Virus record (IMG/VR): IMGVR_UViG_3300028584_001239
Strand: one strand, 5' to 3'
DNA: 64,000 nt
DNA from: a virus
Below, one piece after another: positions 2,213 to 63,965 of this stretch. The notes beneath the pieces were generated by a model. That model saw nothing but the letters and a program-made list of their open reading frames with translations. It was not told the DNA's origin and ran no database searches. A program made the translations under genes and the position numbers. The first letter of the stretch is position 1, and each line of letters starts with the position of its first letter.

Positions 2213-2782
2213 ATGAGTTTTTTAAAGCAATGTGAAAAATTCAAGACATTTTCTAGTCTAAAATATATCATGACTACCGGCCAATACTCAGGTACAGACA
2301 CAAATGCTTTTATTTTGTGTAAAGGGCTGACCGAATATAACTACCAGTCAGACGATCTTAGTTTGGAAGCAATACAAAAACAAATCATCAAGGATAAACT
2401 TAATGGTGTTTGGACATCAGGTTTAACCGACTATATGAAAATGTTAACTGAAAGCTATTACAAGGAAAGCTGGTCAAAGCGACATGAAATGTTAATAGAG
2501 ATAGTAAATCTAAATACATTAGCTACTTTTTCTGGAAATTTTAATAATTACAAAGTTGCTCTGACCAAAGATAGCTACACCATTCAAATGACCAGCAATC
2601 ATTCCGTATTGTTTACGTTAATGGATAATGGAAACATAAGAATGGACAAGGTATTGAAAGGAGATGAAGTACAAAAAAGAGATTACATTTTTGATAATGT
2701 AAAAGAGTTTATACATTTTGTAAATAATATTCAAGAACATCTAGAAACAGATGACAGAGTTTTGAAAATGGCTTTGATTTGA
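2213..2782 (+). CDS. Hypothetical protein with C-terminal MxxI motif
   Basis: SD CAGGAG; ends DDRVLKMALI. Confidence 0.8.
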   Translation: MSFLKQCEKFKTFSSLKYIMTTGQYSGTDTNAFILCKGLTEYNYQSDDLSLEAIQKQIIKDKLNGVWTSGLTDYMKMLTESYYKESWSKRHEMLIEIVNLNTLATFSGNFNNYKVALTKDSYTIQMTSNHSVLFTLMDNGNIRMDKVLKGDEVQKRDYIFDNVKEFIHFVNNIQEHLETDDRVLKMALI

Positions 2783-2854
2783 AAGGATGAAAAACCAGTT
2801 CCTTTTTTCCGCCATTCATGATATAATAGCCACATTGTTTAGAGAGCATTAATT

Positions 2855-3208
2855 ATGACAAATGCAGACAAAAAGAACACTTTAAAATATAAAACAAACG
2901 AACACTTGGTGAGACTCATCAACAACGGATGTGCTAGCTATAAATATACAGAAAACGAGTATGTTGAGTTTCTAATTAAAAAAGGACTTTATGCGTTTGA
3001 AGAACGCATAGAACATGAAAATCCATCCAAAGTATTAGCACACATGAAAGATGCAATGGAATTCTTTAATTTTGCGGATGATAAATTATCTACAATGGAA
3101 CTTGAGCGTCAAACAGCTCTTAATCTGAAGTTAACGTGTAAAGAATTTGAAAAAGAGATTGTAGAATTAACAACAATGTTTATTTGTTACTCCATACTAC
3201 GAGACTAA
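2855..3208 (+). CDS. Hypothetical protein
   Basis: 117-aa ORF, upstream promoter-like TATAAT and SD-like GAGAG. Confidence 0.7.
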   Translation: MTNADKKNTLKYKTNEHLVRLINNGCASYKYTENEYVEFLIKKGLYAFEERIEHENPSKVLAHMKDAMEFFNFADDKLSTMELERQTALNLKLTCKEFEKEIVELTTMFICYSILRD

Positions 3209-3219
3209 AGGAAATTATT

Positions 3220-3462
3220 ATGACTATCCAATCACGTCTATCTAAATATAAATCACTGAAATATCAACATGCTATCAAACATCGTCTTCGTTACTTTGTT
3301 GAAGGCTATATTGATCACATGCAAGGTGCTAATTTTAGCATGACACCTTATCCACTCAGTCCAACTCCGTCCTATGCTTGTGACAATGAAAAAACCAAGC
3401 GTAAATACTGGAGCCGTGGTTATTGGGCTGCAGAACGTATCGCTAAACGTAAGAGGGCGTAA
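3220..3462 (+). CDS. Hypothetical basic protein
   Basis: Start reassigned to ATG 3220 after AAGGAA; operon-like spacing. Confidence 0.7.
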   Translation: MTIQSRLSKYKSLKYQHAIKHRLRYFVEGYIDHMQGANFSMTPYPLSPTPSYACDNEKTKRKYWSRGYWAAERIAKRKRA

Positions 3463-3464
3463 TT

Positions 3465-3677
3465 ATGACATTTACCATCATCGGTCTATTTCTTCTTTGT
3501 TGGTTTTTGATTGGTCTTAGTTCTGGATTTATTTGTTCTTGGATTGACTCCAAATATAATGGATTTCGTTTTGATTATACGGCTGCCTTCAAAATGTCTT
3601 TTCTAGGCGTATTGCTTCTTATTTGGATACCAATTTTCTACACACGATCTAAAAAAGAACAAAAAATTCGGTGGTAG
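3465..3677 (+). CDS. Small two-TM membrane protein; paralog of 45808..46032
   Basis: Two hydrophobic stretches; CWFLIGLSSGFICSWID matches SWFIVGFIGGILCSGVD. Confidence 0.7.
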   Translation: MTFTIIGLFLLCWFLIGLSSGFICSWIDSKYNGFRFDYTAAFKMSFLGVLLLIWIPIFYTRSKKEQKIRW

Positions 3678-3681
3678 TTAT

Positions 3682-4470
3682 TCAAATCACCATCATTCTT
3701 AAAAGTGAAACATAATCTTCATTAAACATATCAGTGTCTATATCAAGGTTATGTTTAACCACTGCTTTATAATGAGTCGCAAATTCATTGTCAATCAAAA
3801 CAGAAAATGATTCTAAGTCAGAAAAACAATAATCAACGCCAATGTAACCATCTGGGCTTTGCTTAATTTGTTCACAATTGATATGCCACACTCCATTTAA
3901 TTGAGTAATCATTACATTGAAAAGAGTTTGATTGGCGTCTGCATAGGGAATAGGCAATTGAAATAAATAGACTTCTGTTAACTGGAATTGTTCGTTAAAT
4001 AGATATTGTCTACTCATCACAAGATCTCGATATTTTCTTTTACTCGACAACATGCCAACAACATCAAAATGAGTTTTGAAACGAGATGTAAATTCAAGCT
4101 TATTTTTATTGTTCAATCTGTTTAATATATTCTTCTGATGACTCTTATTCTTGCGTGGGTCATAGATTTTATATTTTTCGGCTGCTGTATAGATGATATT
4201 AAACATTTCCAAAATATAGTTGTTATCAAGTGGAATGTAATCTAATGATGACAAAAGAAATAACTTATCTGCTAGATTTGAGCCAAGGAAAGATACATAA
4301 TGAGTATCTTTATTAATTCTCAGAAAAGATCGTCTAATATTACCTTTAAAACGGTTAGGCACAATATCATAAAAAGAACGTTCTTCATCCAATCGGTAAT
4401 CTTTCAACTGTGGCATGATATGGTTGAGTAAGCCAATCTTTGGAAATTCTAAATTTAAGAATTGTTTCAT
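3682..4470 (-). CDS. Hypothetical protein with C-terminal MxxI motif
   Basis: 262 aa; ends YVSLLRMMVI. Confidence 0.85.
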   Translation of the reverse strand: MKQFLNLEFPKIGLLNHIMPQLKDYRLDEERSFYDIVPNRFKGNIRRSFLRINKDTHYVSFLGSNLADKLFLLSSLDYIPLDNNYILEMFNIIYTAAEKYKIYDPRKNKSHQKNILNRLNNKNKLEFTSRFKTHFDVVGMLSSKRKYRDLVMSRQYLFNEQFQLTEVYLFQLPIPYADANQTLFNVMITQLNGVWHINCEQIKQSPDGYIGVDYCFSDLESFSVLIDNEFATHYKAVVKHNLDIDTDMFNEDYVSLLRMMVI

Positions 4471-4472
4471 GT

Positions 4473-5261
4473 TTAAATCCTCGACATATAAACCAAATCA
4501 GCATAAGGTTTGATTTCTTCATCTGTCATGCTATATAATTTTTTCAATGCAATATTATGATCTGCAACAATAGTAGAAAATAATTCTAACAATATAAGTG
4601 AAGTGGTATCCTTCTTACATCTTTTAACAGATTTTTCAAACTTTTCAATTGGATCGGTAAGAATGATATAGCTCTCAGCATGATAATCATCTAATGTGCT
4701 TGACGTTAATTGACATCTAAATTCAAATTTATTTTGTTTAACATTCAAATCATAATCGAAGCGACCAGTTAAAAAGTGAGCACTGCGTTCAGTAACGTTA
4801 TATAAATTACTATTAACCTGCATTCTAAAATATCGTTTAGTACACAAACTATAATAAAGCCTGTTATCTTTTTTATCTATTGAAGACTTAAACGAAAAAA
4901 ATGGTGTACTGTCTAAATCAATTTGACTGAAGAACTTAAATTTAGCATTTACATCATTAATACTATCAAGGATAAATAATAATCGTTGCTTATAATTAAT
5001 CTGTTCATTGTCAAATAATAGATTGAACACTTTTTCAAGAAAAGCAGGATTTGCTGTCGAACGTATTTGTAAAGCTGATTTTTGTGCAAATAGGCTGGCA
5101 TAGTTTACAATAAAAAGTTCACTATTATTATCCACAACGATTTCAAATGAAGCCTGTTCTTTATCAATATGTTTGTAAATGGGGGTTATGGAGAAATGCT
5201 GTTCGAAAAAATTAATGAAATATTTTTTTACTTCTAGCTCTAAATCAACTTTAATTTTCAT
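4473..5261 (-). CDS. Hypothetical protein with C-terminal MxxI motif
   Basis: 262 aa; ends YADLVYMSRI. Confidence 0.85.
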   Translation of the reverse strand: MKIKVDLELEVKKYFINFFEQHFSITPIYKHIDKEQASFEIVVDNNSELFIVNYASLFAQKSALQIRSTANPAFLEKVFNLLFDNEQINYKQRLLFILDSINDVNAKFKFFSQIDLDSTPFFSFKSSIDKKDNRLYYSLCTKRYFRMQVNSNLYNVTERSAHFLTGRFDYDLNVKQNKFEFRCQLTSSTLDDYHAESYIILTDPIEKFEKSVKRCKKDTTSLILLELFSTIVADHNIALKKLYSMTDEEIKPYADLVYMSRI

Positions 5262-5354: not shown

Positions 5355-6341
5355 TTAAATTTTAGACATCTTAATAAGGCTTCTATAATTTTCTAAATCA
5401 TCAACACTTTCAATATTGACATCAATCATAAATTCATAATTTTCAAAATGCTCTTTAAATATGGGTTGAAAGGAACCTATAAAATTGAGAAAAAATGGGG
5501 ATCGAAAGTGTTCTTTATATTTAATCACTTGATCAATATGATACCAAGAATTCCAATTATTAAAATTAGTAGTAATCATCATATTTGTTGTGAAATCCAA
5601 TTCACCTTTATCATCAATAAAGAAATGAATTCGACCTCTATGTCTGATATAGTTTTTATTGGATTCTGAAAGAAATGACATTCCATTTTTATAAATGTCC
5701 AGCTTATCTTTCAAGTGAGATGTTTGTAAGATATCTGTGTATTTTGAAGTTAAGTCAAATTCATAATCCAAATAAGCATCCGCAATGAACGTAACATTAT
5801 CATCAACTTCTTCTAAAGTTTCAAAAGAATGAAAAGAACTTCCATCATAATTTTCAATATCTAAATCACCTTCTTTTGGATAGCCAATATATTGAAGTCG
5901 ATATCTTAATAAAATTTGTGTTGATGTCACTTGTTTATTTGCTAGATAAGTTGCCATATGTGAACCTACTGATCCTATGACACCTTCTATCAATAAAACA
6001 TCACCATAATCTGGTTTATCAAATAAATAGCTGCCTGCATTTTTAATAACATACCGAATATTGTTATGAAAAAGATGTAAATGGCTATCAAGAACTTCAT
6101 ATCTATCAAAATGAATGTCATACCTTGAATTCATCTCTGACCGATAGTAAATCCTATCTGAAGCTTTGTCGTAAACAATCCAAATATCACCGAATTCATC
6201 TTTAATAAGTCTATTTAACAAAAAGCTTTCATCAAGTAAGCCTGTTTTATTATGATAAAGTTTATTGTTTTTTAAGGAATAGTTAAGAGACTGTTCATTA
6301 ATATTTAGTAAAGCCAATAGTTTTTCTTTTTTTTCGTTCAT
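5355..6341 (-). CDS. Hypothetical protein with C-terminal MxxI motif; N-terminus related to 8357..9364
   Basis: Start reassigned to ATG 6341 after AAGGA; LYHNKT..LLN.LI.D vs LYNKKT..LFNAID; ends YRSLIKMSKI. Confidence 0.85.
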   Translation of the reverse strand: MNEKKEKLLALLNINEQSLNYSLKNNKLYHNKTGLLDESFLLNRLIKDEFGDIWIVYDKASDRIYYRSEMNSRYDIHFDRYEVLDSHLHLFHNNIRYVIKNAGSYLFDKPDYGDVLLIEGVIGSVGSHMATYLANKQVTSTQILLRYRLQYIGYPKEGDLDIENYDGSSFHSFETLEEVDDNVTFIADAYLDYEFDLTSKYTDILQTSHLKDKLDIYKNGMSFLSESNKNYIRHRGRIHFFIDDKGELDFTTNMMITTNFNNWNSWYHIDQVIKYKEHFRSPFFLNFIGSFQPIFKEHFENYEFMIDVNIESVDDLENYRSLIKMSKI

Positions 6342-6351: not shown

Positions 6352-7212
6352 TTAAATAACAACCATATCAATAACTTTTAATATATCTTTATCAATAGCA
6401 TCAGGAATATAACCTAGTCTCTGAGCCAATACATCTTTATGAGTTTCAAGGTAGCTAATCATGACATTATCAATATCGTTAATATACATATCAAAATAAT
6501 ATTCTGTACTGTTGAGAATATAAGGGCTATGAAAAGCACCAGAACAATCAGTAACAGTGTTGTATTGAGATCCATCACCCACTGAACTACAGTTAACAGT
6601 TTCTTCATTAGTTCTAAATGATGACGGTGTTGATTTTAAATTAAACCGCAATGCAATACCTTTTCGACTAACACATTCTGGACATAGACTTAATTTTTTA
6701 CTGGTTGGAATTGCATCGTGTTTACTGTCAAAAAAGACATCAATATATTCTATATCGTCAATACTTGTAGCTTTTTGATTAAGTCCCACAACAAATGATT
6801 TATGATAATGCATGTTATTTTTATTAAAATCACGATTATACGTGCCATTTAAAAAATAATCAACATTATTAAGCTTATCAAAAAAAATATTGATATACTC
6901 ATTAATTTCTTTGTCTATATGTTTAGATAAAAGCGATTTGACAATAGTTTCACCAAAAGCTAAATCACGTAAAATAAAATCATGATATCCAGAAAATTGC
7001 AAAGAGATGTCAGTAGGTTTTTTACCACTCACCATTTGTTTTAAAGCAGGTCGAACAAAATATTGTATGGTGTCTGACGGGATTGCTTCTACATGGGTGA
7101 TAAATGATTGTAATAGATTTTGTGGAGCTTCCTCCATATCTTTAAGCAACCAAGCTTCATGACTTTTAATTGATTCATCTAACAATAGATGACGATAAGG
7201 TTTTAAAAACAT
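6352..7212 (-). CDS. Hypothetical protein with C-terminal MxxI motif; paralog of 7486..8343
   Basis: Shared MF[LI]KPYR, IEY[IV]D[VI]F, IL[ND]STEYYF; ends ILKVIDMVVI. Confidence 0.85.
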   Translation of the reverse strand: MFLKPYRHLLLDESIKSHEAWLLKDMEEAPQNLLQSFITHVEAIPSDTIQYFVRPALKQMVSGKKPTDISLQFSGYHDFILRDLAFGETIVKSLLSKHIDKEINEYINIFFDKLNNVDYFLNGTYNRDFNKNNMHYHKSFVVGLNQKATSIDDIEYIDVFFDSKHDAIPTSKKLSLCPECVSRKGIALRFNLKSTPSSFRTNEETVNCSSVGDGSQYNTVTDCSGAFHSPYILNSTEYYFDMYINDIDNVMISYLETHKDVLAQRLGYIPDAIDKDILKVIDMVVI

Positions 7213-7274: not shown

Positions 7275-7461
7275 TTAAAAAATTGCCATCTCAATAATAT
7301 CAAGAATAGCTTTATCTATATGTGTAACAGTGTAACCAAGCTTCTGACTTAATCGTTCTTTATTCACTATTAAAACGACTGTAATGTTCTTTTAATGATT
7401 TGACCAATTTAGGTGGAACCATATGAAGAGCACTTTCCAACCAAAGCTTTGTTAACTCCAT
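7275..7461 (-). pseudogene. Internally deleted, frameshifted paralog of the flanking 286/285-aa genes
   Basis: Manual translation: N-terminal piece MELTKLWLESALHMVPPKLVKSLKEHYSRFNSE* then, in another frame with no start, ...ERLSQKLGYTVTHIDKAILDIIEMAIF* matching LSNRMGYTVTNVTKEIIDVIDMSLI. Confidence 0.8.
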
Positions 7462-7485: not shown

Positions 7486-8343
7486 TTAAATGAGACTCAT
7501 ATCAATAACATCAATAATTTCTTTGGTGACATTCGTAACTGTGTATCCCATTCGGTTGCTTAATAAATCAAGATGACCTTCAAGATAGGCAATGATTAAA
7601 TCGTCTACATATTCAGAATGACAAGTAAAGTAATACTCAGTACTATCAAGAATAAACTGACTATAATAAACATTTGTAGCATCTTTTATTTGAGTCTGAT
7701 GTCCTCCATCTTCACCAGATTGTACACAATTATTTATCTCCTTAAGAACTGAAAAACTAGATTTTTTTTCATCAAGATAAATTCTTAGAGAAATGCCAAC
7801 CCTTGTGAGTGTTTCTGGCGTAGTATTTTTTCGGAATGGCTTATTACAAATAACAACATCAGATTGAGTATCATAAAAAATATCAACATACTCAATGTCA
7901 TGAATACTATCCGTATAAGGTTTCAAGCCAATAACAATAGATTTGTCATAATTGGTTTTATTGTTAAGATCAAGAAGCATTGAATAACTGTTGTTGGATG
8001 AAACATTGGTTATAAATTTATTAACAGCAGCAATCCTTTGAAATATAGCTTCTGTCGTATTATTAAAACCATTTTTAAATTTACTATCTAGTAAAGATTT
8101 AATCAAATGAGTGGAATAACCAATATCCCTAATAAGATAATTGTAAGATCCTGAATACTGAAAAGAAATGCCGGTTGCATTTCTAAGCACTGGCACCAAT
8201 TGCATATTGAGTTCTCGGTAATGATCAGTCAATGACTGCCAAATACCTTCTGGCATAAGAGTAAGGGCTTGTTGAAATAAAATTTTCCTATTTTGTTCTG
8301 AATTTGTGCTGGCAGGGATTCTGTATGGTTTAATAAACATCAA
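7486..8343 (-). CDS. Hypothetical protein with C-terminal MxxI motif
   Basis: 285 aa; ends IIDVIDMSLI. Confidence 0.85.
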   Translation of the reverse strand: MMFIKPYRIPASTNSEQNRKILFQQALTLMPEGIWQSLTDHYRELNMQLVPVLRNATGISFQYSGSYNYLIRDIGYSTHLIKSLLDSKFKNGFNNTTEAIFQRIAAVNKFITNVSSNNSYSMLLDLNNKTNYDKSIVIGLKPYTDSIHDIEYVDIFYDTQSDVVICNKPFRKNTTPETLTRVGISLRIYLDEKKSSFSVLKEINNCVQSGEDGGHQTQIKDATNVYYSQFILDSTEYYFTCHSEYVDDLIIAYLEGHLDLLSNRMGYTVTNVTKEIIDVIDMSLI

Positions 8344-8356: not shown

Positions 8357-9364
8357 TTAAATAACAGTCATTTCAAATACTTTAATATAATTTTCAAAAG
8401 CTTCAATGTCATTATAGAAGTCACAAAGATCTTGTGCCATCATTGAGTCAAGAGAAACTGGATTAATAATATTAAGCATCTTCATCACATGTAATGCAAT
8501 TGGGTCGTTATAATTCTTATATCGTTTGATGAATTGTTTTGCTAACTTCATTGAAGCTTCTAAATTGATGGTGAATTTGAAAAAGGTGTCCAAGCTCATA
8601 TCCAAACCAGACCCAGTATCAGTAATAGTAAAGTAATGACCTTTTAATTTATGTGTAGCATTGGGAACTGAATAAATATTCGATTTAAAAAATCCCGGCA
8701 CATCGGATAAATCTTGCCATAAATCATAAACGGCATGATTAATAACCATTAACTTACGATTAATATCATCTGCAAAATCTGTAATGTAGTGGGGCGAAAA
8801 ATGCATTTTTTGATTAGCCCCATGATATAAATTCAAACGAGCTGCATAACTGTAATTATCTGCATCTAGCACATCCAAATTTGAGCGATTGACCAAACTG
8901 GTTGAAATGCGTTTTAGTGTAAGCACTTCTGACCTGAAATCAACAGTAAATGAAAAGTTGCCAAAATCTTCAAAAGGATAAATCATTTTGTAATCAGAAA
9001 AACCTTCACATGCTTTATTAAAAATATTCGTAAAATAGGGCTGATTGTCAACAATGATTGAATGTTGATTATTATGACGTTGGAATTTTGATTCTTTCGT
9101 AGCCTTTTGATGGATGGTATTTCTGGGTATAATCGGGAGATTATTAGCAGTGAATGAATGCGGTTCTGTATAGAAGTTCTCATCATCTCTAAATTTATGC
9201 AAAATTAAGCTGTCTTGAATAGGATTGTCGATAGCATTAAAAAGAACCCAATCAGAAAGAGGTTCAGCGGTTTTTTTGTTATAAAGGATGTTGTCTTTTT
9301 TGATAACTCGTAATAGATGGCTATCAATGCTAATGCGATTACAAAAATGGGCCAAACTGCTCAT
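8357..9364 (-). CDS. Hypothetical protein with C-terminal MxxI motif
   Basis: 335 aa; SD GGAG; ends YIKVFEMTVI. Confidence 0.85.
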   Translation of the reverse strand: MSSLAHFCNRISIDSHLLRVIKKDNILYNKKTAEPLSDWVLFNAIDNPIQDSLILHKFRDDENFYTEPHSFTANNLPIIPRNTIHQKATKESKFQRHNNQHSIIVDNQPYFTNIFNKACEGFSDYKMIYPFEDFGNFSFTVDFRSEVLTLKRISTSLVNRSNLDVLDADNYSYAARLNLYHGANQKMHFSPHYITDFADDINRKLMVINHAVYDLWQDLSDVPGFFKSNIYSVPNATHKLKGHYFTITDTGSGLDMSLDTFFKFTINLEASMKLAKQFIKRYKNYNDPIALHVMKMLNIINPVSLDSMMAQDLCDFYNDIEAFENYIKVFEMTVI

Positions 9365-11454: not shown

Positions 11455-13377
11455 TTAAATAAAAACTTTAATGGAATTTACAATTTTTCTAATTTTTTCA
11501 ACAAAGCCCTCATCATGATTAGATCCCATTTTATATTGTTTTACCTTTTTAACAATGTAGTCAATTTGCTCATCTTTTTCAATTTTCAAATCATTTTTTA
11601 GATGACTAATAGTTAGCTTTGAGTTTTCAGTTAATGTACACCCAATAAGAGAATGATTATCTCTTGAAATTTTATTGAAATCATACAGGAAGTATTGTTC
11701 ATTATTGTTTTGTGTATACTGTGTAAAATAGTATTCATCCCGAGAAATACACCAAGAACTACTGCCTAATAATTTAGATTCCTCAAAGTTTTTAATTCTG
11801 ATTAACATTTTGTTGTCAGATTCTGAAATTATTTCAGCATTTATTTTACTAGCTTTTTCTTTAATGAGTTCAAAAGAAAAGTTGTCTAACAGATTTAATA
11901 CGTTTTCAAGAGCATGACAAAGATCGTCTGCAGTTTTAAATGACGCCATCTTTTTACCAATAGTGTCTTGAATATAACTACATGGGACTTCCAATCGGAA
12001 CAATTCAGTAAAAATAGGCAACAATTGCTCAGAATACAAATGTTTATATTTGTTACTGAAAATAGCTTTTGAATATTTATCAATATTATGATTTTTAATA
12101 AGACTATACATACGATCAGAAGTCCACTCAAGAAGTTGTTCTTGATTGTTAGATTCATTGAAAACATCAATAATATTGAAATTTTTTAATTTTAAAATTG
12201 GTTCATATTTAGCGTAATATCTTACAATATTACTAAAATTGTAAAGAAACATATCATCTCCTGAAGATTTATCAGAGATAATTTTTTGAGACAGTCTTTG
12301 ATAAGCATTCAATAAATGTTTGGAAACTGTTGGTGTTTTTCGAGTTGTAAACTTCAAATAATCACTAAAAGCATTGTTAGCTAGGGTTGGAACCATATTA
12401 AAATCATAGAGCAATTCAAATTTACTGTTAGAAGATTTTTGAACTAAAATAGAATAATCGACAAAAAATGTCACTGAATAATATGGTCCTTTTAATGGGA
12501 AGTTTTGTGCAATAACAGTACAATAATAATTTGTTAAATCAATAGAAAAGGGACTTTTCATAAATTTAACTGCCATTGTATTATCAAGATCACATGAGTC
12601 AAAAATCTCTGGATGTTTGTTCACAAATGATAACAAGATGGAATGTATAATGGAGATATCATCATTTAATGATTTAGTATCAAAAAAATCAACATTATTT
12701 CTAGGCTGAGCAAATGTCATCAATTTATTAATAAAATTTTTAAATTTGTCAACATCAGCATTGGTAATTTTGTTTTTCGAAAAAAATAAATGACTGAGAC
12801 TAAAATTTTCCGATTCTTCTAAAACAGCTAAAACATCTTTATATTCAGATGAAGTATAATATTTACTAGCAATCGACCATAATTCTTTTAATTCCATACT
12901 CATATCAAAATTAACTGATGGAGAAATAACATTTTCCCAATAATTAACAATTTTATTAAAAGATAACTGAGATTTTATCTTAATAATCTTAAGAAGATTC
13001 CTGTATTCACGATCAACATCATTAAAATAATCAGTATATGCTTCTTCATCACTTCTAGATGTAAAAATATTAAATCTAGAATATTTTTGAATATGTGAAA
13101 ATGAATCATCTACTAAAAATTCTTGAAGTTTTTTAAATTTTGATGAGTCTAAAAAATAATCGCTATCATGTTCAAATATCCATGACACTTGATGTTTAAC
13201 ATTATCAAACACATCCTTCAAATCTGCCCCCATAGAAAAATAAATGTCAGCAATATTGATGGGTAAAGATTCTACCCGCCAACCAGAAGACGCCATAGAC
13301 AAATGATGAATAAATTTTTTAGGATTTGTCATATTTTCCAATGTGCTTAACCCTTGATAGTAAGGACTTATATGCAT
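11455..13377 (-). CDS. Large protein with conserved C-terminal GSSSWC domain (PcfJ-like)
   Basis: SNKYKHLY, IGKK.A.FKT, SKLLGSSSWCI, QYF.YDF shared with 13522 and 33079 genes; PcfJ assignment tentative. Confidence 0.75.
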   Translation of the reverse strand: MHISPYYQGLSTLENMTNPKKFIHHLSMASSGWRVESLPINIADIYFSMGADLKDVFDNVKHQVSWIFEHDSDYFLDSSKFKKLQEFLVDDSFSHIQKYSRFNIFTSRSDEEAYTDYFNDVDREYRNLLKIIKIKSQLSFNKIVNYWENVISPSVNFDMSMELKELWSIASKYYTSSEYKDVLAVLEESENFSLSHLFFSKNKITNADVDKFKNFINKLMTFAQPRNNVDFFDTKSLNDDISIIHSILLSFVNKHPEIFDSCDLDNTMAVKFMKSPFSIDLTNYYCTVIAQNFPLKGPYYSVTFFVDYSILVQKSSNSKFELLYDFNMVPTLANNAFSDYLKFTTRKTPTVSKHLLNAYQRLSQKIISDKSSGDDMFLYNFSNIVRYYAKYEPILKLKNFNIIDVFNESNNQEQLLEWTSDRMYSLIKNHNIDKYSKAIFSNKYKHLYSEQLLPIFTELFRLEVPCSYIQDTIGKKMASFKTADDLCHALENVLNLLDNFSFELIKEKASKINAEIISESDNKMLIRIKNFEESKLLGSSSWCISRDEYYFTQYTQNNNEQYFLYDFNKISRDNHSLIGCTLTENSKLTISHLKNDLKIEKDEQIDYIVKKVKQYKMGSNHDEGFVEKIRKIVNSIKVFI

Positions 13378-17369: not shown

Positions 17370-18158
17370 TTATATCATGGTCATGGCTAACAAATCAAGC
17401 TTATCTTGTGTCATCGAAATTCGACAATCAAGATAATCTCTAAAATAGCTACCTTTTACTGTGCCTTCAATTTCAAACAAAATATCGGGATTATAGGCTA
17501 TCCCATTCATGTAAAACGTGCTGTTTTTCAAACTAATGAGTTCAATCGCTGAATTGAAGTGAGTAGCGGTCGCAATAACTTTGTTATTGTATTCTCTGAA
17601 AACAAAATAATACTTAGAACTGTAGTTATCAAATTCCTCAATCTCTGTCACTGCATAATGAGTATCAAAGAATGTATAGTAACTGTCTAGAACAACATTG
17701 CTTCTATTTGCTGATACACCGCCTTCTTTACGATAAAATGTCATTGAAGGTAGATCATATTCAAGTTTTTTAAAAAGATTGTCATTTTTATCCAGAAGCA
17801 CTTTAGCAAGAATGTAGTAAGGATGATTATTGGTTGACAATACGTCTGGGAATTCAACTCTTGATGGAGCAATAGAAAGAACCACCATGATTTTACAATA
17901 ATCTAACTCTTTAACAAAGACATTTGGAGATACTTGTAAATTTAAGAAAAGTTCATCCAATTTGAAAAGACGAATGATTTCATCACTTACCGACTTGACG
18001 GGATTAAACCCTTGATCGAGCAGTAAAGACAAATTAGGAAATGTCTGTTTGCAATTCGTAATATCATATGTAAACAAATTGGGATATTGAACATCAACCC
18101 CACCAGAATCAGAAGGGTCTATATCAGTGTGAATAGTAATGTCGTCTATATTCATCAT
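17370..18158 (-). CDS. Hypothetical protein with C-terminal MxxI motif; paralog of 18183..18971
   Basis: Shared YPNL.T..I..C, AK[VI]LLD.N..L; ends KLDLLAMTMI. Confidence 0.85.
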   Translation of the reverse strand: MMNIDDITIHTDIDPSDSGGVDVQYPNLFTYDITNCKQTFPNLSLLLDQGFNPVKSVSDEIIRLFKLDELFLNLQVSPNVFVKELDYCKIMVVLSIAPSRVEFPDVLSTNNHPYYILAKVLLDKNDNLFKKLEYDLPSMTFYRKEGGVSANRSNVVLDSYYTFFDTHYAVTEIEEFDNYSSKYYFVFREYNNKVIATATHFNSAIELISLKNSTFYMNGIAYNPDILFEIEGTVKGSYFRDYLDCRISMTQDKLDLLAMTMI

Positions 18159-30488: not shown

Positions 30489-31175
30489 TTAAATAATGCA
30501 CATGGAAATAAGAATAAGCTGCTCGTTCAATGTATCAATGTCAGTTAATCTATGAAGTTCAATATCAACATTTTTTGGTATTACGTGTTGATTAATGCGT
30601 TCAAAGAAAAGATCCAAAAAGTTATCCGATCCACTTTTATTATTAAAATTAATTTCATTCACTTGAATAAAATAAGGAATATCTTTAAATACACTGTAGC
30701 GTGGATTAATACCAATAATTTTTAAAATGTTATCTTGAATATTATATGTTGGCGTTACATCATTATTAGTATTATTTTCAATTTGACCATTGCTAATCCA
30801 CACAATTTCAACATCTTCATAAAAGTTAGAATAAACAGCAATTATTCTTTCATAATATTCTGAAAAGTATTTAGGTTTATAGTCAATACTGATGTTCTCT
30901 TGTGATATTGAATGTCGATAAACAGATCTAAAAAATGAAAGTTCTCGTGGACTAACATTAGCAACAGTGACATGATTATTAAAAGTTCTGTTATCAAAGT
31001 AATCAATAGCTAAAATATCATCATTTTCATCAATAACAATGCCATCACGGGGTAATTGAATGTTATGTGCGTTCTCAATAAAATGAATAATCAAGTTAAG
31101 ATTGGATTCATTATAAAGAAACCTAAAACGCTCATCAGTCTCAGCTTCTTCTGTATAACCATCAAGCATAAACAT
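30489..31175 (-). CDS. Hypothetical protein with C-terminal MxxI motif; paralog of 31195..31899
   Basis: EL.F[FY]R..Y[RK]HS, YF.EY.[ED]R, [IV]VWI..G.IE shared; ends QLILISMCII. Confidence 0.85.
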   Translation of the reverse strand: MFMLDGYTEEAETDERFRFLYNESNLNLIIHFIENAHNIQLPRDGIVIDENDDILAIDYFDNRTFNNHVTVANVSPRELSFFRSVYRHSISQENISIDYKPKYFSEYYERIIAVYSNFYEDVEIVWISNGQIENNTNNDVTPTYNIQDNILKIIGINPRYSVFKDIPYFIQVNEINFNNKSGSDNFLDLFFERINQHVIPKNVDIELHRLTDIDTLNEQLILISMCII

Positions 31176-31194: not shown

Positions 31195-31899
31195 TTAAAT
31201 CATTACCATAGAAATAAGTGTCAACCTATCTTTCAATGTTTGTAAATCCATATCCTTATTTAATTTAAGCTCAGGTTCATCAGGGATAATTCGGGTGTTA
31301 AATCTATCAAAAAAAGTATTCATGAAATAATCAGAATCGTTGTTCATGAAATTAAATTCATTAATGTTAAGGAAATCAGGAACATTATTAAATTTTTTAT
31401 AGCGTGGTCGTTCACCCACAAATTTGAGATAGTTGTCATTAATCTTATAGCTTGGTGTAACAAATTTGCTAAAAACACTAGTGACATCACCTTCAATTTC
31501 ACCTGCAGTAATCCAAACAATATTCACCTCTTCATAAAACGTTGAAAAGACCGCCAGCACACGGTCACAATATTGACGGAAATATTCGTTTTTCAGAGTC
31601 GTCTCAATTTTTAGTGGAGACGAACATTTATTGTTACTGTGTTGGGAATGTTTGTAAATCGTTCTGTAAAAAGCCAATTCATCTTTACTGACTTTAGCAA
31701 TATAAGCACAATTATTGAAAATGGCATCAGAAAAGAAATTGCCCCCAAAAATGTCATGATTACTGGCAAGAGTAATAGCTTCGGGCATTAGATTTACACG
31801 ATGAGCTTTTTGCACTATAGCTGAAATGACTTTACGATTGTTATTGAAAAACTCAATGCGTTTATCTTTACGCTCTACCCAACCCTCAACTGAAATCAT
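31195..31899 (-). CDS. Hypothetical protein with C-terminal MxxI motif
   Basis: SD GAGGA; ends RLTLISMVMI. Confidence 0.85.
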   Translation of the reverse strand: MISVEGWVERKDKRIEFFNNNRKVISAIVQKAHRVNLMPEAITLASNHDIFGGNFFSDAIFNNCAYIAKVSKDELAFYRTIYKHSQHSNNKCSSPLKIETTLKNEYFRQYCDRVLAVFSTFYEEVNIVWITAGEIEGDVTSVFSKFVTPSYKINDNYLKFVGERPRYKKFNNVPDFLNINEFNFMNNDSDYFMNTFFDRFNTRIIPDEPELKLNKDMDLQTLKDRLTLISMVMI

Positions 31900-46041: not shown

Positions 46042-46761
46042 TTAAATTAAAGTCATTTCTAATAATGTAATATGTTCAGGTTTTACGTGATTTTTCCAAT
46101 TTAACAATTTTAAATAACTGCAGTCTTTCAAAGCCGGAACAACTTCACCAAGTTCAACAGCCGTAATCAACCTTTCACCGATTTTAAAATAAACATCAGT
46201 AATTGTTTTTGTATTGGAATCATAATCAACACGATGTAAACCAAAGTGTAAATCAGAATCAAAGAACTTTCCGAAGTAATCTGCTGCACTGGCATGATGA
46301 GTAATATACCATTCAGTTTCTGGTCCACGAACAGTGACCATCAACGTAGGTTGACCATACCAGTTGTAAGCAATTATAGATGGTTTTTTTGAAGGCACTA
46401 ATTTGAAGTTATGAGCATAATATCGGCCTTTAAAAGCAAGAACGTATTCTCGTTCTTTACCTTTAAACCCATATTCTTTAGAACATTCTTTGAAATAAAG
46501 TTCAATAACTTCATCGCCAATAATTTTTTTAAACGCACAATCGTATTCTGTTAATTCAGAATGTTGTTCATTAATAAGATCATAAATATTGAAAACAACA
46601 TGCGTATCTTCTTCATCATTGTCGAAATAGGATCTATCAACCTCTGGGTTATTATAACCTAACTCATAGAGTTCCTTAAAGTGACCTTTAACGGTAAAGC
46701 ACTTATTATTCGCTAAGGCTCTTTTTATCTCATCAAGTTTACTATCAATCATTTCAGCCAT
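46042..46761 (-). CDS. Hypothetical protein with C-terminal MxxI motif; paralog of 46763..47575
   Basis: ELYFK, PSII[AG]Y, LNW..HV.PE shared; ends HITLLEMTLI. Confidence 0.85.
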   Translation of the reverse strand: MAEMIDSKLDEIKRALANNKCFTVKGHFKELYELGYNNPEVDRSYFDNDEEDTHVVFNIYDLINEQHSELTEYDCAFKKIIGDEVIELYFKECSKEYGFKGKEREYVLAFKGRYYAHNFKLVPSKKPSIIAYNWYGQPTLMVTVRGPETEWYITHHASAADYFGKFFDSDLHFGLHRVDYDSNTKTITDVYFKIGERLITAVELGEVVPALKDCSYLKLLNWKNHVKPEHITLLEMTLI

Positions 46762-46762: not shown

Positions 46763-47575
46763 TCAAATGGCCCTCATTTCAAGAACAAGGATTTGCTCGG
46801 GCGTCACATGACGTTCCCAGTTTAATTGGTCAATAGGCTTCAATCCCACCAACTCAGGCACTACATCAGCGATGTGTGCAAGATCAATTTGTCTATTGCC
46901 AAGGCGAAACACAACCGACTCAATACGTTTCTTGTGTGTGTAATTAACAATAGCAATGTCAAATAAGTTATTAGATTCATACTCTTTATAGATAACATCA
47001 CCTTGATAAGCATGGTCGAAATTAAAGAACCAAATAACTCGATTTTTATTCACAGTACAAGTCACTGAGATATCACCATTTTGTTTATAACCAATAATGG
47101 AAGGCGTGCCTAATTTTGGAAATTTGATGTCTCTCATGTTCTTATACTCAAGTTTATCTTCTGGAAGAGAGTCCTTAAGATAAGTGCCTTTCAAAACAAG
47201 CTTATAGAAATAATCATTGTGGTCTTCTTTAAATGCAAAATCCTCACGCTTAAAATAAAGCTCAGTAACCCGGTTACCATCTACTTTTTGAAACAATCGT
47301 TCATAGGGATGCACAATATGTTCACGATCCATGACTGACTTTGCAATCACATCAACATAATAAACAGGATTGGCATACTCAGCATCATATTTGCACGTCT
47401 CTACAAAACCAAGTTGATGTAGAAGATCAAATGATTTTCCGCAGATCATAAAACAATCTCGGCCATTAAGTGTTTCTTTAAGCCGAGTCAACAAGACTTC
47501 ATCAGAAGGAATTTCTTTTTGTGCAATTTGATCGGCAATGTAATACATTTCACGACCCAATGTAATTGTTGACAT
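46763..47575 (-). CDS. Hypothetical protein with C-terminal MxxI motif
   Basis: Start reassigned to ATG 47575 after GAGG; ends QILVLEMRAI. Confidence 0.85.
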   Translation of the reverse strand: MSTITLGREMYYIADQIAQKEIPSDEVLLTRLKETLNGRDCFMICGKSFDLLHQLGFVETCKYDAEYANPVYYVDVIAKSVMDREHIVHPYERLFQKVDGNRVTELYFKREDFAFKEDHNDYFYKLVLKGTYLKDSLPEDKLEYKNMRDIKFPKLGTPSIIGYKQNGDISVTCTVNKNRVIWFFNFDHAYQGDVIYKEYESNNLFDIAIVNYTHKKRIESVVFRLGNRQIDLAHIADVVPELVGLKPIDQLNWERHVTPEQILVLEMRAI

Positions 47576-48767: not shown

Positions 48768-49424
48768 TCAAATTTTAACCATATTCATAACAAGGAAATC
48801 ATCATCAGTTAATGCGTTGAACCGCATGTTCTGCTCTTTTAGGTAATTATATAAGTCATGATAACCAATCACACTACCATTAACAATCAAACCATTTTTG
48901 CCAAAAATGGAATTATTCAATGTCAATATTGACGAATAGCTTTTTGTAATTCGATAATGAATAAAATCATATTGCTTGCCAGTCAATGTTTCAATATTGC
49001 CAGCCTGAATGGTAAAACTATTAGGTGCAGCGTTAGCACAACTTAACCCCATCAAAGCAAGAAAACTGCCATAAAACAAGGCGGCACCAATGCTAAAGTC
49101 AATCAAGCGTTCCATCGAATGATAAGTGAATAGTTCATTTAAGGAGGCGACTTCATTATACTTGTTGAGAACTCCAAAGAACAAACACATCACAAAAATA
49201 CTAAGGGGTAGTGCCAAGACAAGTTCAAAACGAACAGTGACCTTCGAACTGAATAGGAAATAAGAAGAACCCGCTGAAAATATTACTGCCAATACAATCA
49301 ATGCTCGCGTCAAACTTGACGTATCACTGAATGAAAAATAGGCATAAACAACAATAAGCAGAAGGTTGAATAAAAATACCTGAGAGACGAAATCATGCTT
49401 GATAAATGTCAATAGTTTTTTCAA
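48768..49424 (-). CDS. Four-TM membrane protein with soluble C-terminal tail carrying the MxxI motif
   Basis: TTG start after GAGGA; ends LTDDDFLVMNMVKI. Confidence 0.8.
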   Translation of the reverse strand: MKKLLTFIKHDFVSQVFLFNLLLIVVYAYFSFSDTSSLTRALIVLAVIFSAGSSYFLFSSKVTVRFELVLALPLSIFVMCLFFGVLNKYNEVASLNELFTYHSMERLIDFSIGAALFYGSFLALMGLSCANAAPNSFTIQAGNIETLTGKQYDFIHYRITKSYSSILTLNNSIFGKNGLIVNGSVIGYHDLYNYLKEQNMRFNALTDDDFLVMNMVKI

Positions 49425-52556: not shown

Positions 52557-52641
52557 GCTTAGATACCGAATAACAGATCTTAAACTTAATATTTCTTATG
52601 CTATACTATAATTATATCAATTAGTCATAGAAAGGTTAGAC

Positions 52642-60738: not shown

Positions 60739-60786
60739 AAATTCTCCTATTTTGTGAAAACAGAAAAACCTCCGAAGAGGCTCCCG

Positions 60787-61711: not shown

Positions 61712-61747
61712 TTGGTTAACCCTATTATAACATTTTATATCGAAAAA

Positions 61748-62134
61748 TCAAATCCAGTCACTTGGAGCCAGTTCTGGAAGTCCATGTTTTGCCCTTGCAC
61801 GGTCACATCGTGGCTCTTTCTGACCAAATTGGTACGAACCATCAAAGTCTCTACAAGAGCTAGAACGTGTTTCATATTTGCTGCATTGACTGTCTTTACC
61901 AATGGTGCCTACAAGGTTAACACAACGAGGGTCTTTGGCTGTGTCAGTACCTTTCATAGCGATAAGGTGGGGTTGAGTGATTGTTACAGTATCCTCATCA
62001 GGGACTGTGCCACCTGCTGATTGTGCTTCAAGCCAGTGAAAAGAGACTCGAAAGAAAGCACAGCAGGCACCACAGCCTACACAGGGATTTTTTTCTTTGC
62101 TCGTAACGATGATATCAGTCATTGCAGCCTCCAA
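61748..62134 (-). CDS. ykgJ: YkgJ-family cysteine cluster (CxxCxxCC) protein
   Basis: NPCVGCGACCAFFRVSF.W.EA, GGTVP, PRCVNL.G..G, RSSSCRDF, CDRARAKHGLP. Confidence 0.85.
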   Translation of the reverse strand: MEAAMTDIIVTSKEKNPCVGCGACCAFFRVSFHWLEAQSAGGTVPDEDTVTITQPHLIAMKGTDTAKDPRCVNLVGTIGKDSQCSKYETRSSSCRDFDGSYQFGQKEPRCDRARAKHGLPELAPSDWI

Positions 62135-62184
62135 AATGATTTGTTTGAAGCATTATTATACTACTTTTTAAAATCGCACGCAAT

Positions 62185-62212
62185 AAAAAACCCCTATGAA
62201 GGGGCTTTTTTT
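62185..62212 (-). terminator. Intrinsic terminator after adk
   Basis: CCCC-tatgaa-GGGG flanked by A and T tracts. Confidence 0.7.
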
Positions 62213-62221
62213 AACAATGAA

Positions 62222-62866
62222 TTAACGCAAAGCTTCAAGAACCGATTGAGTAATAACGCTGAGTTCACCCACACCATCAATGCTACTGAAATTGATACGA
62301 CCTTCTTTGCCCTCTTTTGCATAATATTCAACCACTGGCATGGTCTTTTCAGCATAAGTGCTAAGGCGTGGTAAAATCACTTCTGCGGTGTCATCTTTAC
62401 GTTGAATCAACGCTTCACCTGTTTCATTATCAAGCCATTCTACTTTTGGCTTGTTGAAGATTTTGTGGTAAACGCGACCTGACGGCTCATGGACAAGACG
62501 GCCAGTGATACGTTCAACAATCAAATCAAATGGCACACGAATTTCAATCACATGATCAACATGAATGCCCATGCTGGTCATTTTGAGGGCTTGAACATGA
62601 GTTCGTGGAAAACCATCAAGAATGAATCCATTTTTGCAGTCTGGTTGGGCAATACGATCTTCAATAATAGAAATAATCATTTCATCAGAAACGAATTGAC
62701 CATTATCAATAAGTGATTTAATCAAATCACCACGTTCGGTACCACTTTCTTTTTCGAGACGAAGCATATCGCCAGTCGAAATGTGTGGGATCGAGAATTT
62801 TTCTGAAATAAATTTTGCTTGTGTCCCTTTGCCAGAACCGGGAGCACCGAGTAAAACAACTTTCAT
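62222..62866 (-). CDS. adk: Adenylate kinase
   Basis: LLGAPGSGKGTQA, HISTGDMLR, GFILDGFPRT, Gram-negative-type LID HEPSGRVYH..TGEALIQRKDD. Confidence 0.95.
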   Translation of the reverse strand: MKVVLLGAPGSGKGTQAKFISEKFSIPHISTGDMLRLEKESGTERGDLIKSLIDNGQFVSDEMIISIIEDRIAQPDCKNGFILDGFPRTHVQALKMTSMGIHVDHVIEIRVPFDLIVERITGRLVHEPSGRVYHKIFNKPKVEWLDNETGEALIQRKDDTAEVILPRLSTYAEKTMPVVEYYAKEGKEGRINFSSIDGVGELSVITQSVLEALR

Positions 62867-62939
62867 ATGTAGACCTCCAATGAATAGATGACCATTATAG
62901 CAAAAAAAGAAGCTGAGATCAAATTAAAATGTAAAAAAA

Positions 62940-63965
62940 TTAAAATAATGCCATATCAAGAACTTCAAGATCTTTTACTGTAATGTTGTCTCGATCTGTG
63001 GCTAGAATGTCGCAAATTGTTGATGTTACTTCATTAAATTGTTTTTGATAAAATTTTTCAAAAGTGTCAATTTTTGGAGATGTTGGATTTGTTGAAATGT
63101 TAATACCAATACTATGTCCAAACGTAAATATATCTGATCCAATCTCGATAAAAAATAAAGTATCCATTGCCTGTATATCAGTTTTAGTTGAAAAAGAATG
63201 GTTAGCAAAAGTTAGTGATAAATCTTTAATTTTTTGATTTCTTTTTGTCATGTTGTAATAAAAAAACATCATAGAAAGTATATTAATAAGCAATCCAATA
63301 TCATTTTCATTCATTGATTTTTTAAGTGTTTTTTTAAGAATAGATAAATCATTAAGAGAGATCTTCATACTAATAAATGGTTTCATATCATCAATAACAA
63401 GGCGATTATCAATAATTGAAATTGAATTATCCCACAGCATCTTTTTTTCTTCAGTCTTCATAATAAATGATTTAACGTCATTTTGGTTAATAATCTCTTC
63501 GAGTTCAGAGGTAGATATAGGATGAACCAGAGAATGAATGTAAGTTCTATTAATATATTCCTCATGAGTTTCATTTAACATATTTTCAAAAACAGTGTTA
63601 TCAATAATCATATCGGGCTTATTGAAATATTCCTCTATTTTGCTTTTTAAAACATTTAATAAAGAAAAATAAACACAATTGAAAGAAAGATTATCTAACT
63701 TAATTACACTATGTCGTGTAGACAAAGAAAAATTTTCTAAGCCAAAACAGTCAATCTCAAAATATGAGTTTTCAGCGTATACATGATTTGGTAAAACAGT
63801 AAAAGTGCAACCTTCATTATAAGATTCACGAATCTCACCATTAAATAAGTTGTCAATAAAAGACAATAAAGTAGTCAATTGTTTGATTTCTGATTTCCTA
63901 TAGTTAGGCATAATTATCGAATAAAATAAATCATCATTAATAAATTTAAAATGAGAAATTGCCAT
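62940..63965 (-). CDS. Hypothetical protein with C-terminal MxxF variant of the motif
   Basis: 341 aa; ends ITVKDLEVLDMALF. Confidence 0.85.
   Translation of the reverse strand: MAISHFKFINDDLFYSIIMPNYRKSEIKQLTTLLSFIDNLFNGEIRESYNEGCTFTVLPNHVYAENSYFEIDCFGLENFSLSTRHSVIKLDNLSFNCVYFSLLNVLKSKIEEYFNKPDMIIDNTVFENMLNETHEEYINRTYIHSLVHPISTSELEEIINQNDVKSFIMKTEEKKMLWDNSISIIDNRLVIDDMKPFISMKISLNDLSILKKTLKKSMNENDIGLLINILSMMFFYYNMTKRNQKIKDLSLTFANHSFSTKTDIQAMDTLFFIEIGSDIFTFGHSIGINISTNPTSPKIDTFEKFYQKQFNEVTSTICDILATDRDNITVKDLEVLDMALF

Follow-up and report, generated by a model that had tools for sequence, protein, structure and literature searches.

A conserved C-terminal tail looks like a common docking or capping element of orphan proteins in a megabase-sized, phage-like genome

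Introduction

In phage T4, gp43, gp55 and gp33 carry C-terminal clamp-binding epitopes that are read by the gp45 ring (PMC2988020). [quoted passage not shown] Other resemblances are found in the signals of type I and Dot/Icm type IVB secretion, which occupy the last 20–60 residues, must be C-terminal, are not cleaved, end in acidic and then hydrophobic residues, and are borne by many fast-evolving orphan effectors. Moreover, encapsulins, microcompartments and the T4 capsid use a short terminal peptide or amphipathic helix to load diverse cargo into a shell. At the level of the protein body, OspA and the MORN/YwqK arrays form a long antiparallel beta-meander, followed in OspA by a C-terminal helix, and OspA/MORN-type proteins, including the MORN families of giant viruses, have often been expanded as variable binders in large viruses.

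Here, we describe a C-terminal tail found in a stretch of 64,000 nt (the window) and borne by about one protein in six of an AT-rich, phage-like, megabase-sized genome and its relatives. It appears to be a docking or capping element, so far undescribed, that is common to a huge and fast-evolving repertoire of proteins.

The Tail in the Window

The motif [LV]-h-x-M-x-x-[IF] (h, hydrophobic), directly followed by the stop codon, ends 15 of the 78 ORFs of at least 100 aa in the window, against 0.02 expected by chance from composition, and 15 of the 21 occurrences of the pattern anywhere in these ORFs lie at the very C-terminus. The 15 C-termini quoted in the initial annotation are all exact on re-reading, and chance is excluded both by these figures and by the far lower counts in controls. 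The tagged genes, sorted into groups G1 to G11, and the remains of one decayed copy are as follows:

2213..2782, + strand: G1 tagged ORF, 189 aa, ends ...RVLKMALI; the L030 orthologue keeps the tail
3682..4470, - strand: G2 tagged ORF, 262 aa, ends ...SLLRMMVI
4473..5261, - strand: G3 tagged ORF, 262 aa, ends ...DLVYMSRI
5355..6341, - strand: G4 tagged ORF, 328 aa from ATG, ends ...SLIKMSKI; a TTG start at 6371 is possible
6352..7212, - strand: G5 tagged ORF, 286 aa, ends ...KVIDMVVI; 32% identical to 7486
7275..7355, - strand: C-terminal remnant of a third, decayed G5 paralogue, ends ...DIIEMAIF-stop
7381..7425, - strand: out-of-frame N-terminal fragment of the decayed third G5 copy
7486..8340, - strand: G5 tagged ORF, 284 aa, ends ...DVIDMSLI
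8357..9364, - strand: G6 tagged ORF, 335 aa, ends ...KVFEMTVI
17370..18158, - strand: G7 tagged ORF, 262 aa, ends ...DLLAMTMI; model: beta-meander, then three C-terminal helices
18183..18971, - strand: G7 paralogue, 262 aa, ends ...DLLEMYLI; 24% identical to 17370
30489..31175, - strand: G8 tagged ORF, 228 aa, ends ...ILISMCII
31195..31899, - strand: G8 paralogue, 234 aa, ends ...TLISMVMI; 38% identical to 30489
46042..46761, - strand: G9 tagged ORF, 239 aa, ends ...TLLEMTLI; model pLDDT 79, tail helix 228–238 at pLDDT ~90
46763..47575, - strand: G9 paralogue, ends ...LVLEMRAI; 29% identical to 46042
48768..49424, - strand: G10 tagged ORF, 218 aa, TTG start, ends ...LVMNMVKI
62940..63965, - strand: G11 tagged ORF, 341 aa, ends ...EVLDMALF

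For the G9 paralogue at 46763, the most likely start is 47575 and not 47650, giving 270 aa, the length of its orthologues. By eye, the N-terminal part of the G10 protein reads as about four hydrophobic segments of transmembrane-like character, which the orthologue P0034 also keeps, and is followed by a soluble end of about 85 aa.

The Leu and Val codons differ among the copies of the tail (CTT, TTA, TTG, GTT and GTA), the stop codon is TAA in 11 of the tagged ORFs and TGA in 4, and the DNA 3' of them is unlike from copy to copy; thus, the constraint acts on the protein, as the initial annotation had held. By BLAST, the only significant similarities among the 15 bodies are those within four paralogue pairs (6352/7486, 17370/18183, 30489/31195 and 46042/46763), in line with the lack of visible body similarity stated there. 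The decayed 16th copy that had been flagged is real (tail ...IIEMAIF-stop), and at the corresponding locus the related contig L030 has four intact G5 copies. The family evolves by such birth and death, seen in this remnant and in a carrier copy number that differs among relatives, and the rapid diversification that had been proposed for this set of orphan proteins is supported.

The Tail across Related Contigs

A scan of metagenomic relatives (contigs of 0.4–1.9 Mb, GC 26–32%), which the initial annotation had called for, found the tail throughout them, on 107 of 580 sampled ORFs as opposed to 4 of 531 ORFs in control loci (p = 3e-27), the resulting carrier share of about 18% being that of loci near copies of one dispersed family, which may not hold genome-wide. 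These 107 carriers fall into 62 sequence families and range from 113 to 591 aa. The motif is strictly C-terminal, since it matched 97 protein ends but only 6 of 161,622 internal windows, and the position of the protein end relative to it does not vary by a single residue.

The consensus describes an amphipathic helix of about 14 residues, [ST]-x-[ED]-[ED]-h-x-x-[Y/D]-h-x-[LVI]-h-x-M-x-x-[I, less often Y/V/F]-COOH. Met(-4) is invariant, being found in each of the 69 distinct tails and in each of the 62 family representatives (5.2 bits of information in the latter), and positions -7, -9 and -10 are conserved as well. About half of the tails have an acidic residue at -5, and the four residues after it are mostly hydrophobic. 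The last four or five residues are mostly non-polar, and in the position profile the hydrophobic arc of the tail helix exceeds 200 degrees. Orthologues at 42–91% identity retain the tail. In all ten scorable families, conservation of the last seven residues equals or exceeds that of the body; when the last 12 are taken, one of the ten (G2) is less conserved there than in its body.

Carriers and the Relatedness of Their Bodies

All carriers are proteins without an assigned function. No Pfam or PHROG family was found in any of the 15 window carriers, and a Pfam domain occurs in none of 35 carriers as opposed to 15 of 50 untagged neighbouring proteins (p = 2e-4), so that the statement that no recognisable enzyme bears the tail holds. 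A general docking tag might be expected on at least some proteins with known domains; among the carriers tested, none has one.

Leave-one-group-out HMMs from which the last 12 residues had been removed gave no matches between groups except G7–G9, iterative profiles built from bodies only never merged the families, and hhalign of G5 against G7 or G9 gave a probability of 1–2%. The G7 and G9 groups align over their last 54 residues (probability 85%); all other families are connected by sequence methods through the last ~12 residues only. The tail is thus the sole feature common to all carriers, which argues that it is their functionally critical part.

A Docking Helix as the Preferred Explanation

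One common partner probably docks at the tail helix. The explanation that we prefer, to which we give a probability of about 45%, is that the carriers are a very large, lineage-specific, fast-diversifying orphan repertoire of AT-rich, phage-like replicons, whose terminal helix is a common handle read by one conserved partner. The beta-meander would be the variable, target-binding part, while the terminal helix would sit on the C-terminal cap in the free protein and serve as the functional handle, with Met(-4), Ile(-1) and the free carboxylate being what the partner reads. Candidates for this partner are assembly platforms, ring or hub proteins, adaptors of a chaperone or protease, and receptors for loading or translocation. 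New members of the repertoire would arise by tandem duplication and be lost by deletion. The window and the sampled loci revealed no reader, secretion machine or capsid link, so that the routing by a hub, translocase, protease or capsid suggested in the initial annotation found no such counterpart. Sortase- and exosortase-type signals (LPXTG, PEP-CTERM and the like), in which a motif precedes a transmembrane helix and a basic cluster, were rejected, since the tail contains acidic residues, is about 14 residues long, has no transmembrane segment and ends three residues after Met.

A further-reaching form, which we regard as unlikely, would make the tail an address label of a new kind, with the terminal helix and free carboxylate acting as a plug by which hundreds of otherwise unrelated early proteins of a megabase-scale, phage-like bacterial element would fit into one receptor. 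To our knowledge, a proteome-wide docking or loading system of this kind has no described counterpart in phages.

Predicted Structure and the Possibility of a Structural Cap

A serious rival to docking is that the tail is purely structural, a family signature of one ancestral beta-meander protein whose C-terminal helix would cap the last hairpins and shield their edge and core, much like the OspA C-terminal helix or repeat-protein caps, and would be conserved for folding, with no partner in trans. AlphaFold (AF2) models, which cover two of at least 62 families, G7 (17370) and G9 (46042), give both proteins the same architecture, in which a strand and a helix at the N-terminus precede an OspA- or MORN-like antiparallel beta-meander of ten strands and then three C-terminal helices, with an identical order of secondary-structure elements and the tail as the last helix. 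Their top structural matches in common are OspA variants and the beta-meander domains of GtfA, TarM, SdgB and Gap1, and the OspA alignments extend to the last residue of the model. The claim of unrelated bodies therefore stands by sequence and fails for the predicted fold shared by G7 and G9; likewise, the counter-case named in the initial annotation, that all carriers belong to a single family and the tail is just one of its core helices, is realised in part, in the models of these two groups.

This shared fold of bodies without sequence similarity, the OspA alignments, the consistent absence of known domains from carriers, the existence of tandem paralogue arrays and the wide hydrophobic arc of the helix all favour a cap. 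The tail is as hydrophobic as is expected of a buried core helix and, in the G9 model, is confidently folded into the protein (pLDDT ~90), so that it may act only in cis; however, pLDDT is only 45–65 in the G7 tail helix. Moreover, a cap would leave it surprising that Met stays invariant in more than 100 proteins while the rest of the fold has drifted beyond detection, since Met normally swaps with Leu or Ile in protein cores, that the protein end never shifts by even one residue, and that the carriers differ so widely in length and include one with transmembrane-like N-terminal segments. A cap without a partner is a doubtful account, if a serious one.

Sorting Signals, Degrons and DNA-Level Signals

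It is quite improbable that the tail is a modular sorting signal on unrelated cargo, by which proteins would be sent to a translocase or packed into a particle, in the manner of a C-terminal signal for type I or type IV secretion or of an encapsulin-type cargo-loading peptide bound to the inner face of an HK97-fold shell. The 62 body families without detectable relationship and the need for an extreme C-terminus would suit it, as would the acidic -5 followed by hydrophobic residues, which resembles the motif of Asp plus hydrophobic residues at the end of type I secreted proteases. A related 1.86-Mb contig (L035) also has genes for a TolC-like (OEP) protein and a MacB-type ABC transporter, but these lie together at one remote locus and not beside carriers, the transporter is not of the HlyB type, and MacB-type pumps load from the periplasm and not from the cytoplasm. 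Near the carriers, neither a HlyB-type transporter nor a type IV system nor a capsid gene was seen, no type IVB apparatus or coupling complex was seen in the sampled loci, and RTX repeats are absent, no Pfam family of any kind having been found in 35 carriers. Furthermore, the carriers have host-type extended -10 promoters, more like early genes than late virion genes, the tail is on no protein with a known domain, and known secretion signals are loose and disordered, whereas here a rigid helix bears an invariant Met.

Very unlikely, too, is a C-terminal degron in which the non-polar end M-x-h-I-COOH would mark early-looking proteins for timed removal of the ClpXP/FtsH/Tsp type by a protease of the host or of the element. 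Non-polar C-terminal pentapeptides are known to destabilise proteins in E. coli (Parsell, Silber and Sauer; Herman and colleagues), the tail ends are mostly non-polar, and tmRNA genes with ...ALAA tags occur on the related contigs, which makes tail-specific proteolysis relevant in the host. However, a degron must be accessible, whereas a packed helix is predicted for the tail, and degrons tolerate many sequences, which leaves the invariant Met and the conserved -7, -9 and -10 unexplained.

Finally, chance, or a promoter, terminator or recombination site that translates as the tail by accident, has a negligible probability and is refuted for the set as a whole by the variety of codons and contexts and the overwhelming excess over controls, for although 17370 and 18183 end in codons that, with the stop, read TGATATAAT and so form an extended -10 box for the gene that follows, codons and 3' contexts differ in the remaining 13 tails, and the periodic hydrophobic pattern reaches 14 residues upstream.

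Significance

With the tail, the "dark" proteome of huge phage-like elements would gain its first functional handle: a single peptide would pick out perhaps hundreds of proteins, could be used as bait for their common partner, and would be a simple sequence rule by which to recognise the clade in metagenomes. The carrier replicons, contigs of 1.5–1.9 Mb with a phage-like gene content, may matter more than the tail itself. According to a 2026 review (PMC13598248), Nucleocytoviricota are the only viruses with known genomes of more than a megabase.

Comparison with Known Systems

Among shell-loading systems, the encapsulin signal is a GSL-type peptide and the T4 capsid signal is N-terminal and cleaved, both unlike the tail; their cargo is few and mostly enzymes. 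The carriers have early-type promoters, and they have not been linked to any shell gene. The type I and Dot/Icm signals differ from the tail in being degenerate and largely disordered, and no cognate transporter genes were seen beside the carriers, whose replicon has the look of a phage and not of a secreting pathogen. The resemblance to OspA and MORN proteins is weak and at the level of fold only (VIA Z up to 6.8, TM 0.3–0.4). The best Foldseek and Atlas matches are MORN or YwqK models at a TM of only 0.23–0.40, the 15 window proteins gave no Pfam match to MORN or MORN_2 (PF02493, PF07661) at E up to 1, and none of the OspA, MORN and YwqK families has a Met-x-x-Ile end.

The T4 clamp peptides, put forward in the initial annotation as a precedent, differ in sequence: gp43 ends in ...ASLDFLFG and gp55 in ...SLDFLYEAND, so that the T4-type epitope S-L-D-F-L-[FY] lacks the Met-x-x-Ile end and is not matched by the [LV]-h-x-M-x-x-I tails of the window, and no clamp gene was found among about 85 proteins scanned against Pfam. 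The T4 epitopes sit on flexible, variable linkers and are shared by three carriers of known function, whereas the tail is predicted to be a helix in a folded cap (at the contrasting pLDDT of the G9 and G7 models) and is shared by more than 100 orphan carriers.

A strictly C-terminal tail in the window

Translation of every open reading frame (ORF) of the window reproduced all 15 C-termini quoted in the initial annotation, each conforming to [LV]-h-x-M-x-x-[IF]-stop. Of the 78 ORFs that reach 100 aa, 15 close with this tail, against 0.02 expected from amino-acid composition, and of the 21 places in which the pattern occurs anywhere in these ORFs, 15 are the final residues. Conservation at the protein level, as first proposed, is borne out by the Leu/Val codons, which vary among copies, and by the DNA beyond the stop, which is gene-specific; thus, a DNA-level motif is excluded as the origin of the tail. 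The stop codons of the tagged genes are TAA (11) and TGA (4). Carriers 17370 and 18183, named like the others by their lower coordinate, are the only ones in which the last codons and the stop form TGATATAAT. This is an extended -10 box belonging to the next gene, and coding sequence and promoter therefore overlap; at 17370-17381 and 18183-18194 (minus strand), ATG ATA TAA T and TTG ATA TAA T give TGATATAAT. A decayed 16th copy, also claimed earlier, proved to be real and was found in two pieces.

7275-7355, minus strand: C-terminal piece of the decayed copy, ending in the tail ...IIEMAIF-stop
7381-7425, minus strand: out-of-frame N-terminal piece of the decayed copy

Carrier families, orthologues and copy number

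None of the 15 carriers belongs to a Pfam or PHROGs family. All-against-all BLAST recovered four paralogue pairs (6352/7486, 32% identity; 17370/18183, 24%; 30489/31195, 38%; 46042/46763, 29%) and no similarity beyond them, and the carriers were thus sorted into eleven groups, G1-G11. In public assemblies, 46042 and 17370 have homologues of 42-91% identity, all of which keep the tail, and the syntenic contigs of relatives (loci L001-L005 and L027-L033) hold the window's genes too, their tails included; judged by these sequences, the window carriers are real, conserved genes. The bodies are conserved as well (28-89% identity within families). In none of the 10 families that could be scored are the last seven residues less conserved than the body; the last 12 residues taken together are less conserved than the body in G2 (carrier 3682).

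Copy number differs among relatives. Group G5 (6352/7486) has four copies in one relative, compared with two and a remnant in the window. The 91%-identity relative carries at L005 16725-17291 an extra tagged gene of 188 aa (end ...LELAKMCII), absent from the window, which has 61 bp at that place between a large GSSSWC gene and a glutamate-synthase-like gene. In a relative, three paralogues in tandem lie just past the window's right edge (L032 18683-20660, minus strand), and their tails have the variant form Q-[KQ]-M-x-x-I. An eight-gene array in which two small families (150-190 aa) alternate, one of them ending in ...PKRT[IL]YE, was also seen in a relative (L031 12197-16459) and is missing at the matching place of the window.

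A Pfam domain was found in 0 of 35 scanned carriers, compared with 15 of 50 untagged proteins of the same loci (Fisher p = 2e-4), in agreement with the earlier remark that recognisable enzymes lack the tail. Domain-less carriers are more readily explained by one fast-evolving superfamily of orphan proteins than by a sorting tag of general use; the absence of known domains is also expected of effector-like cargo.

The tail across a clade of giant contigs

The window's own protein lies on a contig of 1,851,360 bp and its 91% relative on a JGI contig of 1,917,244 bp. A metagenome collection was probed with an alignment (A5) of the three large GSSSWC-family proteins of the window, and scattered copies were recovered on several giant contigs.

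11455-13377, minus strand: GSSSWC-family protein
13522-15390, plus strand: GSSSWC-family protein
33079-34824, plus strand: GSSSWC-family protein

Matches of the GSSSWC probe on giant contigs
Ga0308158_10000001, 1.86 Mb: four match positions, far apart
Ga0247725_1000001, 1.54 Mb: three match positions
Several contigs of 0.4-0.7 Mb: matches

The members of this family, of about 600 aa with an invariant LGSSSWCI motif, are scattered over the giant contigs (L035-L058) and also stand in tandem, with arrays reaching four copies (e.g., L054 5647-12681); weak partial relatives are present on many further contigs, 0.1-0.4 Mb in size.

The samples with GSSSWC-bearing giant contigs have a GC content of 26-32%, and the tail is ubiquitous in them (e.g., 10 of 26 ORFs at L039). 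When the window and all clade loci were pooled, 107 of 580 distinct ORFs of at least 100 aa ended in M-x-x-[ILVFY] (18%, for loci sampled near one dispersed gene family, so that the genome-wide share may differ), compared with 4 of 531 at control loci, which is the chance level (p = 3e-27); the motif is therefore well above background in related loci. A position-specific matrix made from the last 16 residues of family representatives confirmed the strictly terminal position, with 97 of 580 terminal windows over threshold in the clade and 0 of 531 in the control, and only 6 of 161,622 and 3 of 156,194 internal windows, respectively. The 107 tagged proteins (113-591 aa) fall into 62 families by body-only BLAST. 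Met(-4), the fourth residue from the end, is invariant (5.2 bits), followed in information by -1 (Ile, then Tyr/Val/Phe), -7 (Leu/Val/Ile), -10 (Tyr/Asp) and -9 (hydrophobic), with acidic residues at -11 and -15. The tail characterises this clade of very large replicons as a whole.

A profile of the last 60 residues, which is unable to reveal tail-only tags, retrieved from 1.84 billion proteins only 14 clusters, all of them full-length relatives aligning at their own C-terminus; thus, the module is lineage-restricted. No matches came from scans of viral contigs with two carriers, of species genomes with the alignment of G9 (46042/46763), or of a phage collection with the window genes (blastn and tblastn), and the literature yielded neither a description of such a tail nor a phage genome above 1 Mb.

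Nature of the replicon

The window's contig is about 1.85 Mb long and those of its relatives 1.92, 1.86 and 1.54 Mb, the latter each being the largest of its metagenome. Expression signals are bacterial: GGAG precedes almost all ATG codons by 6-9 nt, and TGnTATAAT is placed some 30 nt upstream, many genes having one of their own. Gene content looks, from its sequence, like that of a huge phage: orphan genes predominate in the window and its relatives, and the genes seen comprise TnpB, HNH, DNA methylases, R2K ATP-grasp, an AlkB-like oxygenase, HD plus P-loop kinase, tandem Pth2, adenylate kinase (nearest Atlas clusters from Pseudomonadota), SerRS, a GatA-like amidase and RtcB, together with strong matches to PHROGs of unknown function also present in jumbo phages such as Salicola SCTP-2 and Xanthomonas XacN1. 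Redundant tandem tRNA arrays comprise four tRNA-Tyr(GTA) interleaved with four tRNA-Ser, five Gly with three Cys, and repeated Arg, and two related contigs encode permuted tmRNA genes (ARAGORN).

943-2013 of the window, minus strand: TnpB gene (Pfam OrfB_IS605 and Cas12f-like TNB domain), with no exact copy recorded elsewhere
L049 4695-5799, L054 17697-18721 and L038 19873-20541: tRNA arrays
L045 8674-9017: tmRNA, tag ANDESYALAA
L052 18720-19031: tmRNA, tag ANDNDFALAA
L035 17231-20527, minus strand, 1.86-Mb contig: TolC-like outer-membrane factor adjoining a MacB-type ABC transporter

The tmRNA tags are similar to gamma- and betaproteobacterial ones, a hint as to the host. In the window, 51444-54356 (plus strand) encodes two 370-aa paralogues and, after them, a protein in which an Imm11 immunity domain was recognised (E = 5e-8); the whole may be a toxin-immunity-like cassette. 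The TolC-like and MacB-type genes are unusual cargo for a phage; moreover, no capsid, portal, terminase or ribosomal gene occurs among the sampled loci, and a 2026 review recognises virus genomes above a megabase only in Nucleocytoviricota (PMC13598248). The carriers' replicons, megabase-scale and from a probably proteobacterial host, are therefore called just phage-like. Taxonomy by way of the glutamate-synthase-like gene was abandoned, since it gave only scattered relatives at 38-49% identity. The identity of such megabase replicons merits a separate study.

One family or a modular tag

By sequence, the groups are joined only through the tail. The G7 (17370/18183) and G9 profiles can be aligned in their last 54 residues with a probability of 85%, and no alignment is left once the last 12 are removed; G5 against G7 or G9 reaches only 1-2% (hhalign, shallow family profiles). 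In leave-one-group-out HMMs of residues -60 to -13, left-out proteins ranked at random, except for G7, and iterative body-only profiles never merged families. The claim that the bodies lack mutual similarity thus stands for sequence; it fails for predicted structure, in which G7 and G9 share a fold.

AlphaFold2 models were obtained for the two families with enough homologues, G9 (pLDDT 79, pTM 0.73) and G7 (pLDDT 67, pTM 0.69). In each model the elements follow one order: a short strand and helices come first, then ten antiparallel strands and, after these, three helices, the tail being the last helix (pLDDT about 90, confidently placed, in G9; 45-65, less confidently placed, in G7). At least these two "unrelated" groups share one fold according to the models, and the expected check for a common fold is answered for two families. 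Exhaustive comparison with 48,161 PDB chains gave near-identical top lists for both models, with OspA variants and the beta-meander domains of Gap1, GtfA, GtfB, SdgB and TarM; Z is only 5.4-6.8, which indicates a common arrangement and is no evidence of homology to these proteins. Foldseek and Atlas searches of the models returned MORN or YwqK hairpin arrays (TM 0.2-0.4), and PDB profile and ESM Atlas searches were uninformative. G10 (48768) differs, with about four hydrophobic, transmembrane-like segments followed by a soluble end of only about 85 residues. Chou-Fasman secondary structure was discarded as too crude (Q3 0.62 against the AlphaFold2 models).

Possible function of the tail

The tail helix is strongly amphipathic, its hydrophobic arc exceeding 200 degrees, and must therefore be buried, whether within its own protein or in a partner. 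We tentatively favour, at a probability of about 0.45, a hyper-diversified repertoire of binders with a common docking helix: the variable beta-meander would be the binding part, and the C-terminal helix common to the carriers would dock onto one conserved partner, which would read it. The main rival, a serious one if less probable, is a purely structural cap, consistent with the tail being the last helix of both models; four facts speak against it: Met(-4) is invariant, although protein cores usually tolerate Leu or Ile, the protein end is absolutely fixed, all other positions have drifted past detection, and the carriers differ widely in size. A modular export or loading signal seems less probable still, and host-type promoters ahead of the carriers argue against late, virion-packaged cargo; a degron is improbable. 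The acidic rather than basic character of the tail makes a membrane-targeting helix unlikely, and a sortase-type signal is excluded by the lack of a transmembrane segment.

Comparison with known systems

As a terminal address, the tail resembles in idea the type I and type IVB secretion signals, encapsulin loading peptides and microcompartment encapsulation helices, from which it differs in motif, rigidity, number of carriers and genomic context. Nearest in logic to the Met-x-x-Ile tail are the clamp-binding tails of T4, which nevertheless differ in sequence (ASLDFLFG, SLDFLYEAND) and are flexibly linked (PMC2988020), compared with a tail predicted as the last of three helices in the G7 and G9 models.
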